Shown here: positions 6,075 through 10,172 of the stretch, piece by piece
Layout: each line of letters starts with the position of its first letter
Numbering within the stretch: position 1 is the first letter of the stretch
Origin: a virus
Lineage: Duplodnaviria > Heunggongvirae > Uroviricota > Caudoviricetes
Direction: 5' to 3' (one strand)
DNA length: 21,023 nt
Virus record (IMG/VR): IMGVR_UViG_2778261176_000007
Location: 1 to 21,023 of that record
Notes under the pieces: model-generated
The model's input: the letters and a program-made list of their open reading frames with translations, nothing else
What the model was told of the DNA's origin: nothing
Database searches by the model: none
Position numbers and translations under genes: made by a program

Positions 6075-6177
6075 GTTAAATCTCCAGATAGTCGCAGCAC
6101 CCGTTGCGCCGCATATCTGGTTATTCTATTACCTGAAAAACCACATATGGATAGAAAGACTGTAAATACGAATAGAT

Positions 6178-6194
6178 ATTACCTTTCGGGTAAT
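6178..6194. promoter_or_regulatory. 17-bp palindromic operator-like site ATTACC-TTTCG-GGTAAT (copy 1 of 5)
   Basis: Perfect 6-bp inverted arms with a 5-bp spacer. Located in the divergent region between the tailspike gene and the small Ant-C-like gene. Confidence 0.55.
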
Positions 6195-6232
6195 TTGCAA
6201 AACGTGCTGGATAGCAAACAAATTATTTGCTA

Positions 6233-6248
6233 CTGTATAAATATACAG
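6233..6248. promoter_or_regulatory. LexA (SOS) box CTGT-ATAAATAT-ACAG
   Basis: taCTGTATAAATATACAGtt differs from the LexA consensus CTGTATATATATACAG at one central position. It sits 22 nt upstream of the ATG at 6270 and contains a TATAAAT -10-like hexamer. Confidence 0.6.
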
Positions 6249-6269
6249 TTATTGCATGGAGAAGATAAG

Positions 6270-6527
6270 ATGCAGCAGTATCACTATCCACTGGAAGACG
6301 GATTTACCGAAAGGATTCACACGCCGGGAGGCGTCAGATCACTAGTGGAGGGATCGCACTTGATGAAATTACTCCGGGATCTCGATAAGGATGGATTTAA
6401 TGTCGATGGCCCACTTGCCGAACTGACTGCACTGATTAACTACGTCACCAGCTCACAGATGTCTATGCGGGATCTGCAAACACATCTCGACTATTGTGCC
6501 GAACAATTACGAAAACAAACCAGATAA
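6270..6527 (+). CDS. Small stand-alone protein homologous to the C-terminal domain of the two Bro-N antirepressors (candidate SOS-controlled antirepressor-like factor)
   Basis: 85 aa from the internal ATG (the track ORF starts at 6147 but would cover the operator palindrome and LexA box). GGAG SD 9 nt upstream. Alignable by eye to the Ant C-termini (LAELTALINYVTSSQMSMRDLQTHLDY versus AAELTTMFCYIVGVSKCLRDIQTHAEY). Confidence 0.5.
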   Translation: MQQYHYPLEDGFTERIHTPGGVRSLVEGSHLMKLLRDLDKDGFNVDGPLAELTALINYVTSSQMSMRDLQTHLDYCAEQLRKQTR

Positions 6528-6556
6528 GGTTTGCAATTACCAAGTGGAGTGCTTAT

Positions 6557-6575
6557 ATTTACCTTTGCGGTAAAT
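6557..6575. promoter_or_regulatory. Palindromic operator-like site ATTTACC-TTTGC-GGTAAAT (copy 2 of 5), at the start of the ant1 leader
   Basis: Perfect 7-bp arms. About 45 nt upstream of the conserved structured leader element. Confidence 0.55.
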
Positions 6576-6600
6576 TTACATCGCACTCCTCTTGTGCCAT

Positions 6601-6685
6601 AGTAATCGGGCACTGGCAAAATCCAGTGCCGGGATTGGCGTCCCGGATTACTAAAAGGCGCATTCACCGCGCAAGCGGTTTTTTT
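6601..6685 (+). ncRNA. Structured leader RNA element upstream of ant1 (c4-like antisense-RNA candidate): closing stem, two hairpins, and a hairpin plus U7 terminator
   Basis: Stem AGTAATC (6601-6607) pairs with GATTACT (6646-6652). Hairpin A is GGCACTGG-caaaat-CCAGTGCC (6609-6630). Hairpin B is CCGGGA-ttggcg-TCCCGG (6629-6646). Terminator-like ACCGC-gcaa-GCGGT followed by T7 (6666-6685). The stems are conserved in the inverted ant2 copy while the loops differ (compensatory pattern). Confidence 0.4.
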
Positions 6686-6842
6686 ATGCGTATAGCACGG
6701 CCACATTCGTATTATGGTGGGCTGTGTGGGGGCACCGAAAGGTGCGCCGGGTCCTTTTAGCCGGTTACGCCAACCCTGCACAGCTCACCACCAACCGATT
6801 GGCGTCGGTAGTGGTGATTAACCAGACTAAAAGGTAACCACT

Positions 6843-7538
6843 ATGACAGCTACAAAAAGCACGTCCATTTTTTCTTTCGAATCCCAAGCCGATATACGAG
6901 TAATCGTCATTAATGGTGAGCCATGGTTTATCGCTTCAGATGTTTGTCGGGCTATAGGCATAGCAAACCATCGAGATGCTGTTCGAAAACTTGATGATGA
7001 TGAGAAGGGCGTCGCTTCAACCGACACCCCTGGCGGTGAGCAAGAATCGATCATCATCTCCGAGTCAGGCCTCTACACACTGATCCTCCGCTGCCGCGAC
7101 GCAGTGACACCAGGCACTATCCCCTACCGCTTTCGTAAATGGGTTACAGGTGAGGTTCTTCCTCAGATCCGCCGCACCGGAAGCTACATTAAAAACTCGC
7201 TCCCGCAGGAAGAACGCATAAAGATGGTTGCCGACCAGGTAGCCAACGCCACGGCGTCAGCAGTAATGCAGGCGATGAAGATAGAGAACAAAACCTACAG
7301 CGCCCCGCTGAAGCCCGGCTACCGCAGTTTGATTCACTCGCCGTCTGGTGTTCTCGGCCTGACGGAGAACTCACTGCTGATGAATCTGCTGAACCAGTTA
7401 CAGGAAGACGGGCACGACGTATCGGGCGCGGCGGCGGAACTGACCACCATGTTCTGCTACATCGTCGGTGTGAGTAAATGCCTGCGTGATATCCAGACCC
7501 ACGCGGAATACATCAACGACAAGGCAGGGGTCTTCTGA
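6843..7538 (+). CDS. Antirepressor-like protein with Bro-N N-terminal domain (ant1)
   Basis: 231 aa. N-terminus IFSFESQADIRVIVINGEPWFIASDVCRAIGI...ESGLYTLILR is a Bro-N-type motif. AAAGGT SD before the ATG. The C-terminal half is nearly identical (about 95 percent nucleotide identity) to the inverted paralog at 8652-9344. Confidence 0.85.
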   Translation: MTATKSTSIFSFESQADIRVIVINGEPWFIASDVCRAIGIANHRDAVRKLDDDEKGVASTDTPGGEQESIIISESGLYTLILRCRDAVTPGTIPYRFRKWVTGEVLPQIRRTGSYIKNSLPQEERIKMVADQVANATASAVMQAMKIENKTYSAPLKPGYRSLIHSPSGVLGLTENSLLMNLLNQLQEDGHDVSGAAAELTTMFCYIVGVSKCLRDIQTHAEYINDKAGVF

Positions 7539-7547
7539 CAGAACGGC

Positions 7548-7570
7548 GGCACAGGGATGTGCCTTTAAAT
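7548..7570 (+). terminator. Putative terminator of ant1 (hairpin GGCACA-ggga-TGTGCC followed by TTTAAAT)
   Basis: 6-bp stem about 10 nt after the ant1 stop. The T-tract is interrupted, so this is weakly supported. Confidence 0.35.
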
Positions 7571-7736: not shown

Positions 7737-7955
7737 ATGTTTAAATTTGATATGCAACTCAACCAAAACTATGCCTCTTTTTACCATCCAGAAACTGGTA
7801 AAGCTGTTTTCGTTGACTCTTTCGATAATGAAGAATTTGATATCAGAATTGGGACCCTACGCCAAAGTAAGCATGTTGCTACTGTACGTGCATCCAATGA
7901 TGATGAATTAAATCAAAAAATAAGTGAGGCGACCTCCCGTTATCTATGTCTATAA
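7737..7955 (+). CDS. Hypothetical protein, 72 aa (first gene of AT-rich moron cassette)
   Basis: Strong SD GGGAGG 7 nt upstream of the ATG. AT-rich codon usage unlike the flanking genes. Its stop overlaps the start of the next ORF (ATG at 7946, TAA at 7953-7955). No recognisable domain. Confidence 0.55.
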   Translation: MFKFDMQLNQNYASFYHPETGKAVFVDSFDNEEFDIRIGTLRQSKHVATVRASNDDELNQKISEATSRYLCL

Positions 7956-8323
7956 CAGAACAACAACTCATTGATCTTGAGGATGAGATTAACGAGATCT
8001 TGCAAGAAGATGCGGCAAGAATTCACTTTTCATTTCACGCAGCATATGAACGCCTGAACGACGAGAGGAACAAACCGCCAATTACTCTTGCTGAGCTTGA
8101 AGATGTGTTTAAATCGTTTATATCTGCACATCTGCAGACTGTTTTGGATTTTGCTGAAGGTACAACTTTCACCATAAAGTGCAACAAAAGCGCCCTTCAT
8201 TTTCCTTGCGCCATTGTACACGAAAGAGAGTTTGGGAAAACGTGGGTTATCCAAAACGTCATTACAGCCATGAGGAAAGTGGGATTCAAGTCTAAAGATT
8301 CTATTATCCTCGAAGTTAATTAA
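7946..8323 (+). CDS. Hypothetical protein, 125 aa (second gene of AT-rich moron cassette)
   Basis: Translationally coupled to the 72-aa ORF. Acidic N-terminal half. Followed immediately by an intrinsic terminator. No recognisable domain. Confidence 0.6.
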   Translation: MSITEQQLIDLEDEINEILQEDAARIHFSFHAAYERLNDERNKPPITLAELEDVFKSFISAHLQTVLDFAEGTTFTIKCNKSALHFPCAIVHEREFGKTWVIQNVITAMRKVGFKSKDSIILEVN

Positions 8324-8344
8324 GCCCGCACTGAGGGCTTTTTT
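8323..8344 (+). terminator. Rho-independent terminator of the two-gene cassette
   Basis: Stem AGCCC / GGGCT with loop GCACTGA, followed by TTTTTT (8339-8344). Directly after the stop codon at 8321-8323. Confidence 0.7.
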
Positions 8345-8416
8345 ATGGACGAAACAAAAGTCAGTGCTACACTCATTGACGCCACATTGAGGTGGCTTAT
8401 AGATGGAAATTTCACA

Positions 8417-8578
8417 ATGAAAAAAGCATTTGCTGCACTGTTCGTTTTGTTGTCTCTGGTAGCTTCAACTCAGGCCTTTGCCGGTCGTTGTCAGCACGAC
8501 AGCGATACTGCCGCTGACGGCTCCCGCTGCGGTGGGCGTTCTGCGGACTCCCGCCCGGGCGGCGGTGGCATTCGTTAA
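8417..8578 (+). CDS. Small secreted Cys/Gly-rich peptide (about 53 aa), hypothetical
   Basis: Signal peptide MKKAFAALFVLLSLVASTQAFA then GRCQHDSDTAADGSRCGGRSADSRPGGGGIR. Weak SD. The upstream in-frame ATG at 8345 lies inside the preceding terminator T-tract, so 8417 is the more plausible start. Confidence 0.3.
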   Translation: MKKAFAALFVLLSLVASTQAFAGRCQHDSDTAADGSRCGGRSADSRPGGGGIR

Positions 8579-8651: not shown

Positions 8652-9344
8652 TCAGAAGAACCCTGCCTTGTCGTTGATGTATTCCGCGTGCGTCTGGATA
8701 TCACGCAGGCATTTGCTCACACCGACGATGTAGCAGAACATGGTGGTCAGCTCCGCCGCCGCACCCGATACGTCGTGCCCGTCTTCCTGTAACTGGTTCA
8801 GCAGATTCATCAGCAGTGAGTTCTCCGTCAGGCCGAGAACACCAGACGGAGAATGAATCAGGCTGCGGTAGCCGGGCTTCAGCGGGGAGCTGTAGGTTTT
8901 GTTCTCTATCTTCATTGCCTGCATCACTGCTGATGCTGTGGCGTTGGCTACCTGGTCGGCAACCATCTTTATGCGTTCTTCCTGAGGGAGCGAGTTTTTA
9001 ATGTAACTTCCGGTGCGGCGGATCTGAGGAAGAACCTCACCTGTAACCCATTCAAGAAATCTGAATGCTCTCGTTCCCTCAGTCATTGCCTCTTTGCAAC
9101 GCAGAATAAGGATGTAGAGACCTGATTCTGAAACGATGGATAGTTCTTGTATTCCACCAGGGGTCTGTATTGAATACAGCCCCTTTTTGTTCCAGCCTTT
9201 TTTATCAAGTTTTCTCGCTTGTGTAACATCAATATTCAAAGCATTGCACACATCTTTGGTGACAAACCAAGGTTCTCCGTCAATCATGAACATACGGATC
9301 TGGCAGGATGACTCAAAGGAAAAGATGGAAGGTTTGGTATTCAT
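8652..9344 (-). CDS. Antirepressor-like protein with Bro-N N-terminal domain (ant2), inverted paralog of ant1
   Basis: 230 aa from the ATG at 9342-9344 (the track ORF starts 15 codons upstream at a TTG). AAAGGTGA SD. The Bro-N domain has diverged from ant1 while the C-terminal 130 aa differ at only 2 residues. Confidence 0.85.
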   Translation of the reverse strand: MNTKPSIFSFESSCQIRMFMIDGEPWFVTKDVCNALNIDVTQARKLDKKGWNKKGLYSIQTPGGIQELSIVSESGLYILILRCKEAMTEGTRAFRFLEWVTGEVLPQIRRTGSYIKNSLPQEERIKMVADQVANATASAVMQAMKIENKTYSSPLKPGYRSLIHSPSGVLGLTENSLLMNLLNQLQEDGHDVSGAAAELTTMFCYIVGVSKCLRDIQTHAEYINDKAGFF

Positions 9345-9498
9345 AGCGATCACCTTTGTAGTTAGGTTAATCACCACCGCTGAGACCAATCAGATGGTGG
9401 TGAACTGTGCAGAGTTGGTCTTACCGGCTACAAAGGAACCCGGCGCACCTTTCGGTGCCCCCACACAGCCCACCATAGAATAGGTGCGCTTTACACAT

Positions 9499-9584
9499 AA
9501 AAAAACCGCTTATGCGGCATATGTGCCTCTGTAGTAATCCGGGAGACCAATCCCGGCACTGGATTTTGCCAGTGCCTGATTACT
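9499..9584 (-). ncRNA. Structured leader RNA element upstream of ant2 (twin of 6601-6685), c4-like antisense-RNA candidate
   Basis: Same closing stem and two hairpins as the ant1 leader, with loop B changed from ttggcg to ttggtc. Terminator-like CCGC-ataa-GCGG followed by U7 on the minus strand (9499-9517). Confidence 0.4.
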
Positions 9585-9611
9585 ATGGCACAAGAGGAGT
9601 GCGTTGTAAAT

Positions 9612-9626
9612 TTACCTCAAAGGTAA
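9612..9626. promoter_or_regulatory. Palindromic operator-like site TTACC-TCAAA-GGTAA (copy 4 of 5), at the start of the ant2 leader
   Basis: Perfect 5-bp arms. Equivalent position to copy 2 in the inverted arm. Lies in the divergent region between ant2 and the 9774 gene. Confidence 0.5.
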
Positions 9627-9773: not shown

Positions 9774-10172
9774 GTGCCATTCCACGGCGTAGAACTTTAT
9801 GTTGTCAATCACAACGGCGAACCGTACACCCCAATGAAACCTATCGTTGAGGGAATGGGGCTAGACTGGAAATCTCAACATAAGAAGATTTCTCAACGCT
9901 TCTCGAAGGGTATGGTGGAAATCACCATACCTTCTGCCGGTGGGGTGCAAGCCATGATTTGTATGGCTTTACGAAAATTGGCAGCTTGGTTGAACAGCAT
10001 CAGCCCTAACAAAGTCCGCCCTGAAATCCGCGATAAGGTAATCCAGTATCAGGAAGAGTGTGATGATGTGCTCTATGAGTACTGGACTAAAGGCCATGTG
10101 GTTAACCCGCGCAAAGCTAAAAAGGTGTTGCCGGGTAAAATCACTACTGAGCAACAGGAGGTATACACTTAA
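9774..10172 (+). CDS. Phage antirepressor-like protein (P22 AR N-terminal-like domain), hypothetical
   Basis: 132 aa. The motif LRKLAAWLNSISPNKVRPEIRDKVIQYQEECDDVLYEYW resembles antirepressor N-terminal domains as I recall them. The first in-frame start is a GTG with no clear SD, so the start is uncertain (an internal ATG lies 20 codons in). Confidence 0.5.
   Translation: MPFHGVELYVVNHNGEPYTPMKPIVEGMGLDWKSQHKKISQRFSKGMVEITIPSAGGVQAMICMALRKLAAWLNSISPNKVRPEIRDKVIQYQEECDDVLYEYWTKGHVVNPRKAKKVLPGKITTEQQEVYT

Follow-up and report, generated by a model that had tools for sequence, protein, structure and literature searches.

What is the compact structured stretch at 6601-6690, in the leader of an antirepressor gene (ant), and what does it do in the 21,023-nt window (the whole stretch of DNA analysed here), where a second, inverted copy is also found? 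The initial annotation read it as a non-coding, structured ant-leader RNA with an intrinsic terminator, and suggested a processed small RNA or an attenuator. The description of the RNA and its terminator holds. Processing does not: by homology this RNA is a primary transcript whose 3' end is set by its terminator, and the processed RNA is its downstream neighbor, C4. From its sequence and predicted fold, we consider it nearly certain that the structured stretch is the small RNA IsrK, the counterpart of the a1-b1 target element in the immI leader of phage P1. The best explanation, and very probably the right one, is that IsrK (a1-b1) opens an RNA-controlled antirepressor module and that the window contains two convergent copies of it, here called modules A (6601 onward, plus strand) and B (the twin, minus strand).

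The layout is of the phage P1 immI / Salmonella Gifsy-1 IsrK / P4 seqA-CI type, and it occurs here in a phiV10-like (Uetakevirus) element. Systems of this kind are not novel. They are catalogued in Rfam and have already been described, in the IsrK-C4 and seqA-CI literature and in APSE phage records that annotate IsrK and C4 side by side. Barquist et al. use the wording “IsrK-C4 immunity system” (PMC3632133). The finding leaves knowledge of this kind of system unchanged.

An Rfam scan of the window returned four matches above the curated thresholds, two to isrK (RF01394) and two to C4 (RF01695). The isrK matches are at 6610-6685 on the plus strand (77.9 bits, threshold 50) and, in the twin, at 9575-9499 on the minus strand (74.7 bits, same threshold), and both span model positions 1-77 of 77. 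A permissive scan added c4-a1b1 (RF03163, “a1, b1 targets of C4 antisense RNA”) at 6597-6649 (45.1 bits, E = 8e-11) and at 9588-9536 in the twin (38.4 bits, E = 9e-9). Both scores are under the 46.7-bit threshold, and both matches cover the full model. The c4-a1b1 match consists of the same two hairpins as in IsrK, located upstream of a C4 RNA and accompanied by two words complementary to exposed C4 segments. In modules A and B alike, a1 pairs with a' over 7 nt and b1 with b' over 8-9 nt. The IsrK architecture is also complete: hairpins with CAAAAU and UUGGNN loops, a linker, an intrinsic terminator and its own promoter, where promoter and 3' end are predictions. The hairpin-1 loop, CAAAAU, is invariant among homologues, and no partner was identified for it. 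No tRNA or tmRNA genes were found in the window.

Where does the RNA begin? The features just upstream of the hairpins are:

6559..6573, plus strand: TTACC-N5-GGTAA, an operator-like palindrome that stops 2 nt short of the module A -35 hexamer
6575..6603, plus strand: promoter of module A from a promoter scan, with -35 TTTACA at 6575-6580, a 17-nt spacer, and TG-n-CATAGT placing the -10 hexamer at 6598-6603
9582..9626, minus strand: palindrome (9612-9626) and promoter of module B, with -35 at 9605-9610 and -10 at 9582-9587

The A at position 2 and the T at position 6 of the -10 hexamer are invariant in all 76 distinct homologues, whose upstream regions are otherwise very different, and a TTGACA-like hexamer occurs 17-18 nt upstream of the -10 in related loci (76 distinct upstream regions). 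The window hexamer lines up with the -10 annotated for the P1 promoter P1c4/P51b. Based on this conservation and alignment, transcription should start at ~6610 in module A and at ~9575 in the twin; 6610 coincides with model position 1 of Rfam isrK. The palindrome retains its arms and varies in its spacer in the sub-lineage that includes the window, and reads as a putative DNA-level protein site.

The predicted start bears directly on the three-way junction that the initial annotation drew at 6601-6652, closed by AGTAATC (6601-6607) and GATTACT (6646-6652). Both arms are present at these coordinates, and the drawn junction is the minimum free energy (MFE) fold of 6601-6690 and of the twin. However, the 5' arm is made up of the final 3 nt of the -10 hexamer and the 4 nt that follow it, and since it lies upstream of that start, the junction fails. 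Pairing of the closing stem is at chance level: 47.3% of cells are paired across 67 distinct homologues, compared with 25-46% for slid controls, and an alignment-free test gives 4.6 nt for cognate and 4.2 nt for non-cognate arms. The stem shows no covariation between the two copies because it is identical in both, and both Rfam models (isrK and c4-a1b1) leave its bases unpaired. An 8-bp version was found in 9 of 68 related sequences, all from the single sub-lineage that includes the window. It would take transcription from further upstream, and processing out of the ant leader, to produce a three-way-junction RNA from 6601-6652, and given the promoter overlap and the chance-level pairing we find this scarcely credible. 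The junction appears to be a folding artefact, in which the DNA that was folded took in the promoter -10 and bases upstream of the predicted start.

What remains of the structure is better supported:

6610..6685, plus strand: IsrK / c4-a1b1 small RNA of module A, with two hairpins, linker and terminator (fold z = -2.43)
6658..6691, plus strand: outer stem GCGCAU (6658-6663) / AUGCGU (6686-6691), which encloses the terminator hairpin and U-run and is in the MFE fold
9499..9575, minus strand: IsrK / c4-a1b1 small RNA of module B
9505..9518, minus strand: terminator of module B, with U7 at 9499-9505 and outer-stem arms at 9521-9526 and 9493-9498

In module A, hairpin 1 pairs GCACTGG (6610-6616) with CCAGTGC (6623-6629) around the loop CAAAAT, hairpin 2 pairs 6630-6634 with 6641-6645 around TTGGCG, and the terminator ACCGC-GCAA-GCGGT (6666-6679) runs into seven T (6679-6685). 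All sequence features named in the initial annotation are where it placed them. Fold prediction also reproduced its drawing: the MFE fold of 6601-6690 has an energy of -38.5 kcal/mol (z = -4.06, with 0 of 200 shuffles as good), and the twin (9584-9494) gives z = -4.59.

Covariation in a larger alignment, which had been proposed as a check, favors hairpins 1 and 2 and the outer stem and goes against the closing stem. Homologues were drawn from 120 loci on viral contigs, collected with a pattern from hairpins 1 and 2. This pattern misses the window's own hairpin 1 (CCAGTG), and the window copies were added by hand. Across 67 distinct homologues hairpins 1 and 2 are paired in 99.8% and 97.9% of cases, and five pairs show changes in both partners; the fixed columns of the collection pattern cannot count as conservation. 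The outer stem is 86.5% paired in 47 distinct homologues, and both partners change at 4 of its 6 pairs (15 sequences, for instance, have A-U in place of G-C). Its covariation score is 0.322, compared with 0.153 when shuffled, and 0 of 500 shuffles reach the observed value. The compensatory change from CGCAT/ATGCG (6659-6663 / 6686-6690) to CACAT/ATGTG in the twin, noted from the two copies in the initial annotation, is real and recurs as covariation in the family. An alignment-free test of the outer stem discriminates weakly (5.94 vs 5.07 nt) because most loci have similar arms, and the column-wise count is the better test. Terminator-region stems were counted with a hand-written structure; RNAalifold predicted no pairs for a MAFFT alignment of this region, since the variable loops were misaligned. 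Hairpins 1 and 2, the terminator and the outer stem are supported by covariation.

As its 3' arm lies past the termination point, the outer stem can form in read-through RNA only. Insulation of IsrK from the C4 domain and RNA processing are guesses at its role. In the P1 leader, too, a terminator-like hairpin is flanked by an outer stem (GGACA...UGUCC).

Downstream of each IsrK are a C4 RNA and an antirepressor gene:

6710..6795, plus strand: C4 antisense RNA of module A (79.2 bits, threshold 45; fold z = -5.89)
6843..7538, plus strand: antirepressor gene A, 231 aa, Bro-N (Pfam Bro-N E = 2.3e-21; PHROG anti-repressor Ant E = 4e-63)
9393..9480, minus strand: C4 antisense RNA of module B (78.6 bits; z = -4.48), with b' CCUUUGUAG at 9428-9436 and a' AGACCAA at 9415-9421
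9353..9393, minus strand: ant-B leader targets, a hairpin at 9380-9393 carrying a2 UUGGUCU (9383-9389), and b2 CUACAAAGG (9353-9361) over the ribosome-binding site
8652..9344, minus strand: antirepressor gene B, 230 aa, Bro-N, 80% identical to A

Both C4 copies score above 45 bits and have a long closing stem that encloses two internal hairpins, and their targets occur downstream on the regulated mRNA. Regarding a tRNA-like 3' CCA, both copies end ...CACCACCA. The hairpin GCACC-GAAA-GGTGC at 6732-6745, previously described as a conserved hairpin downstream of the structured element, is present and takes its place as the first internal hairpin of C4. RNase P cuts C4 out of the P1 leader transcript, as Hartmann et al. 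reportedly found in 1995. Among 107 IsrK-pattern loci with enough flanking sequence, 100 have C4 within 520 nt downstream. Divergence between the two ant genes is mostly in the N-terminal 120 residues.

How would two such similar modules tell their parts apart? The differences between A and B cluster in six short places, and these are the recognition words, named here after the annotated P1 GenBank record:

6635..6641, plus strand: a1 UUGGCGU, in the hairpin-2 loop, pairing with a' of C4
6651..6658, plus strand: b1 CUAAAAGG, in the linker, pairing with b' of C4
6753..6760, plus strand: b' CCUUUUAG, in the C4 hairpin loop of module A
6767..6773, plus strand: a' ACGCCAA, in the C4 junction strand of module A
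6799..6805, plus strand: a2 UUGGCGU, in the loop of the ant-leader hairpin ACCGA-UUGGCG-UCGGU (6794..6809)
6827..6834, plus strand: b2 CUAAAAGG, overlying the Shine-Dalgarno sequence and 8 nt upstream of the ant ATG
9544..9550, minus strand: a1 UUGGUCU of module B
9526..9534, minus strand: b1 CUACAGAGG of module B

Read in the order IsrK / C4 / ant leader, the module A triplets are UUGGCGU / ACGCCAA / UUGGCGU and CUAAAAGG / CCUUUUAG / CUAAAAGG, and those of module B are UUGGUCU / AGACCAA / UUGGUCU and CUACAGAGG / CCUUUGUAG / CUACAAAGG. The b words of the twin read CUACA[G/A]AGG, and all three sites change jointly between A and B. The stem of the a2 hairpin is compensated, with CUGA-UUGGUC-UCAG in the twin where module A has ACCGA...UCGGU. 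The initial annotation had observed that stems are kept in the inverted copy and that loops and flanks differ. This is correct, but the loop differences are not incidental: they vary in step with C4 and the ant ribosome-binding site.

The same pattern extends across the family. The ~80 distinct loci contain 46 different b' sequences in the C4 loop. The match of b1 to b' averages 8.5 nt for cognate and 4.9 nt for non-cognate combinations (46 distinct C4 loops), and that of b2 to b' 9.5 and 6.3 nt. Seven allele pairs of a1 and a' co-vary; a single hybrid departs from the rule. In most loci 6-11 nt separate the end of the b2 match from the start codon. Whole-molecule cofolding, applied to IsrK plus C4 and to C4 plus the ant leader, did not discriminate (ddG of -1.8 or 0 for every pairing). 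Loop-loop contacts fall outside that model, so loop-restricted duplexes were used. With these, C4-A binds IsrK-A at -29.5 kcal/mol and IsrK-B at -18.6, and C4-B binds IsrK-B at -27.6 kcal/mol and IsrK-A at -17.0. For the ant leaders the cognate advantage is 3 to 7 kcal/mol, and for all loop-restricted duplexes it is 3 to 11 kcal/mol. By sequence comparison, then, the loop and linker differences between the copies read as a specificity code and not as noise.

Several known systems share this layout. In Gifsy-1 of Salmonella (RF01394; IsrK-STnc1160/‘orf45’-anrP; Hershko-Shalev et al. 2016, PMC4825925) there are the same hairpins, linker and terminator, a C4-like read-through region and an antirepressor gene. 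IsrK has two forms there, a short terminator-ended RNA and the 5' part of a read-through mRNA, and the region downstream of it yields a processed RNA of ~80 nt, STnc1160 (PMC4825925). Supplied in trans, IsrK increased read-through 8-fold and antirepressor translation 139-fold (PMC4825925). Compensatory mutant pairs G28A/C162U and G31A/C159U connect IsrK loop positions +28 and +31 with C4 positions +162 and +159 (PMC4825925). Counting from a start at 6610, +28 and +31 are G 6637 and G 6640 in the a1 loop, and +162 and +159 are C 6771 and C 6768 in a'. This match in numbering identifies the published Salmonella pairs as a1:a' pairs. Gifsy-1 is a lambdoid element, whereas the window belongs to a phiV10/epsilon15-like, podovirus-type prophage, has an orf45-type frame that is ill-placed for coupling, and carries two modules with different words.

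The P1 immI leader has the same order as the window, with promoter P51b, a1, b1, c4, a2, b2 and then the gene in the annotated GenBank record, and it scores 51.0 bits for c4-a1b1, 35 bits for isrK and 68.8 bits for C4. Citron and Schuster reportedly described this P1/P7 operon in 1990 as P51b, a1-b1, c4, a2-b2, icd and ant1/2. P1 and P7 differ in their words, which accounts for the absence of immunity between these two phages, and modules A and B differ likewise. In P1, icd lies between c4 and ant, and ant is expressed only if icd is translated, whereas in the window b2 sits directly on the ant ribosome-binding site; no icd-like ORF occurs between C4 and ant in the window, which thus departs from the P1/P7 gene order. 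The P1 antirepressor is Ant1/Ant2, that of the window a Bro-N protein. A C1-controlled operator is found at the P1 promoter; the window has the palindrome TTACC-N5-GGTAA by its -35. The window works like immI, yet it is not a P1-type operon.

In P4 immunity (seqA, CI RNA = seqB, seqC), as in the window, a C4/CI-type RNA is flanked by upstream and downstream copies of its target. The equivalences IsrK = seqA and C4 = CI have been stated (PMC3632133, PMC4825925), and the likeness of IsrK to P4 seqA and of STnc1160 to P4 CI RNA has been noted (PMC4825925). The outcome in P4 is premature termination ahead of the replication genes, whereas the downstream target in the window is the ribosome-binding site of an antirepressor gene. 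The phage-plasmid N15 has an anti-immunity locus with CA RNA, of the same kind as P4 immunity. The immI region of P22 (sar, ant, arc, mnt) offers a looser parallel, in that a small RNA holds down an antirepressor in a podovirus-type phage. However, sar is a cis-encoded antisense RNA on the opposite strand of the ant leader, and the regulator in the window is on the same strand and upstream; the Rfam scan of the window gave no match to sar.

How, then, might the module work? Its parts, promoter and stems, and the three-site complementarity with its covariation, are observed here; the start, the termination efficiency and the processing of C4 in the window rest on homology. Each module would be driven by its own sigma-70 promoter, with RNA from ~6610 (twin 9575). 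Two hairpins would form, followed by the intrinsic terminator, and transcripts that stop there would be the ~76-nt IsrK. Read-through transcripts would extend through the C4 antisense RNA into the ant mRNA, and by homology with P1, RNase P would release C4. In the freed C4 both words would be exposed as single strands, b' within a hairpin loop and a' along a junction strand. Following the logic of P1, and consistent with position and covariation, pairing of b' with b2 over the ant Shine-Dalgarno sequence, helped by a':a2 just upstream, would keep ant from being translated. The same two words are present in IsrK, so its a1 and b1 would bind the same face of C4 and compete with the ant leader for it. 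An excess of IsrK would then relieve repression; this activating direction is taken from the Salmonella data, and for the window we infer both the direction and the size of the effect. The IsrK terminator would also gate read-through, setting the amount of C4 and ant RNA, and C4 bound to a1/b1 of the nascent leader may favor stopping at that terminator. Given their differing words, modules A and B may act independently, although cross-pairing of C4-A with the ant-B leader is only ~3 kcal/mol weaker than cognate pairing.

The element in the window would control an antirepressor, and hence prophage induction. We grade the mechanism below the identity of the element, at moderate confidence, because two results from Gifsy-1 do not suit a pure decoy: G28A in cis raised basal expression, and the co-expressed C4-like region enhanced IsrK toxicity (PMC4825925).

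The same Salmonella work leads to a different model. Its authors favor an intramolecular switch, in which the IsrK part of the read-through RNA pairs with the downstream ‘orf45’ into an inactive structure; short IsrK in trans displaces this pairing and opens the orf45 ribosome-binding site, and translation then couples into the antirepressor gene (PMC4825925). This was argued experimentally for the homologue (PMC4825925). The window has the same complementary bases, and an AUG at the 5' end of C4 is found in both copies (6714-6716). However, ‘orf45’ coincides with the C4 RNA gene. The frame from the C4 AUG has 14-16 codons in many loci and 28-66 in others, and in still others it continues in frame into ant; stop and ant start overlap in just 5 of ~80 loci. 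In the window the frame ends 24 nt (A) and 48 nt (B) before the ant ATG, loop indels shift the frame across C4 between the two copies, and the MFE fold of the full leader keeps the IsrK and C4 domains apart. A conserved peptide across C4 was considered as a general feature of the family and rejected, as frame length and stop position vary among the ~80 loci. The translational-coupling step is unlikely as a general rule, and the intramolecular model as a whole we also judge improbable for the window.

Attenuation of the P4/N15 type stands closer to the competition for C4 that we prefer, and is compatible with it. Here the main role would be enforcement of termination by C4 on nascent a1/b1, with IsrK chiefly a by-product. 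Pairing of P4 CI RNA with seqA and seqC causes premature termination, according to the passages on P4 in two papers (PMC4825925, PMC3632133), and the 8-fold rise in read-through with IsrK in trans is in line with such a role. In the window b1 (6651-6658) abuts the terminator region (6666-6685), and an alternative hairpin between GCGC at 6658-6661 and GCGC at 6669-6672 (minus-strand match 6672-6658) would compete with the terminator stem. Against this, antiterminator pairing of bases 5' of the terminator with the terminator loop is no better in cognate combinations (3.82 vs 3.46 nt, no statistical support). We consider attenuation as the main role possible, but not the likelier reading. IsrK could also be mainly an Hfq-dependent, trans-acting small RNA on host mRNAs, with its position in the ant leader incidental; Rfam calls the family ‘isrK Hfq binding RNA’, and the invariant, partnerless hairpin-1 loop would suit such a role. 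Yet C4 and an ant-type gene adjoin IsrK in 100 of 107 loci, and the variable words track the cognate C4 and not any host sequence, which makes an Hfq-centered role very unlikely. Competition of IsrK with the ant leader for C4 therefore remains our preferred account of the locus.

Both copies and their downstream genes are contained in a ~1-kb inverted repeat (6554-7562 vs 9631-8628). The DNA shares 96-99% identity with phages of the phiV10 type (genus Uetakevirus), among them vB_EcoP_ZX5 and phiV10, in which the site is the same, between the tail-spike gene and virion genes. A search of a plasmid collection gave partial matches only. Convergent double modules occur in many E. coli prophages, and in 5 of 5 prophages examined the resident modules differ in a' (ACGCCAA vs AGACCAA) and in b'. 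The second module of one prophage (L126) is a hybrid, with an IsrK that fits the C4 of the other module, and in two further prophages (L125 and L127) the segment that separates the leaders lies in opposite orientations. A viral contig (L050) has a tandem array of four C4 genes, no two of which share a b' loop. In this small sample, these sequences would fit selection for distinct keys together with recombination between repeated leaders.

A joint reading of these patterns is that the RNA locks are deliberately orthogonal, that leader recombination reshuffles their keys, and that ‘orf45’ is simply the C4 gene. We offer this as speculation that is more likely wrong than right. If it were true, each IsrK would be an anti-antisense decoy for its own C4 only, and the two antirepressors would be released by separate inputs. 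Recombination between inverted leaders would make ‘orphan’ modules, with a C4 that has no matching IsrK, and a three-site model (a1b1 / a'b' / a2b2) would replace the two-structure model. Side-by-side modules with different words are a natural test bed for the specificity of RNA locks, and the paired modules may help to reconcile the Salmonella IsrK model with the older antisense models of P1 and P4.

For annotation, the stretch is non-coding and its proper label is IsrK (a1-b1) plus C4 RNA; none of the five RefSeq E. coli records examined has an RNA feature annotated at the locus. Module B is adjoined by a fragment of a P22-type Ant N-terminal domain (9774-10172).

The two convergent modules, A (+) and B (-), each with a promoter, IsrK, a C4 antisense RNA and an ant gene, are flanked by two partial antirepressor genes, and further genes occupy the slot between their ant genes:

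6147-6527 (+), partial antirepressor gene with only the C-terminal domain (phrog_450) common to Ant-A and Ant-B, the Bro-N antirepressors of the two modules
9774-10172 (+), partial antirepressor gene with only the P22-type Ant N-terminal domain
7737-8578, between the convergent ant genes, three small genes (phrog_14630, 14518 and 3117) with no assigned function
8322-8340 (+) and 8601-8584 (-), terminator-like sites bounding the three small genes

The P22-type N-terminal fragment is classed as a pseudogene by RefSeq in E. coli relatives, and the slot between the convergent ant genes carries other cargo in related prophages, for example the YafO toxin or an ORF6N protein. The region around the modules looks like both a graveyard and a hot spot of ant cassettes.

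Related loci also differ in how their leaders are arranged. The prophages at L125 and L127 (E. coli AH20E044 and EcPF40) carry the segment between the two convergent leaders in opposite orientations. In L126 (E. coli strain 315), both modules have the same IsrK, which does not match the C4 of the second module and leaves that C4 an ‘orphan’; L105 is a similar hybrid. Both the inversion and the orphan C4 suggest that the inverted leader repeats have recombined with each other. In the annotation tables of L123-L127 (RefSeq E. coli chromosomes), neither IsrK nor C4 is entered as an RNA feature at these loci, and the 250-400-nt leaders are shown there as empty intergenic space.

Three further elements are present in both modules of the window:

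6559-6573 and 9612-9626, palindrome TTACC-N5-GGTAA, 2 nt short of the -35 hexamer at both IsrK promoters
6617-6622 and 9563-9568, loop CAAAAU of hairpin 1, the first 5' hairpin of IsrK
6810-6842 (module A) and 9347-9379 (-) (module B), further ant leader hairpin directly before the ant start

In related loci, the arms of the palindrome are kept and the 5-nt spacer is free to vary, a sequence pattern that looks like a putative dimeric repressor operator acting at the DNA level, not an RNA structure. The hairpin 1 loop is highly conserved in the Rfam consensus; in our own homologue set, CAAAAU was fixed by the collection pattern. No complementary partner for this loop was found in C4 or the ant leader; one possibility is that Hfq or another protein is its partner.

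The loop of the leader hairpin contains the b2 word together with the Shine-Dalgarno sequence, and the arms of this hairpin are compensated between the copies (AGUGGU...ACCACU in module A versus GCGGU...AUCGC in module B). The motif GGUGGUGA, located 3' of the a2 word, recurs at many of the listed related loci. It duplicates the 5' strand of the stem that closes C4, and so could compete, before processing, for the 3' strand of C4.

Variant arrangements occur among the relatives. A sub-family with a 97-nt IsrK-C4 gap (e.g., L010, L026, L033 and L040) has ~37 extra bases after the IsrK terminator, absent from the window, that fold as a hairpin with the loop UAUAAU and may constitute an extra promoter or processing site. 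In L050 (IMG/VR contig 2806310672_000003, 2351-4994), there is a tandem array of four C4-type RNA genes, all on the same strand and spaced ~850 nt apart, each with a different b' loop, and with three different a' strands overall.
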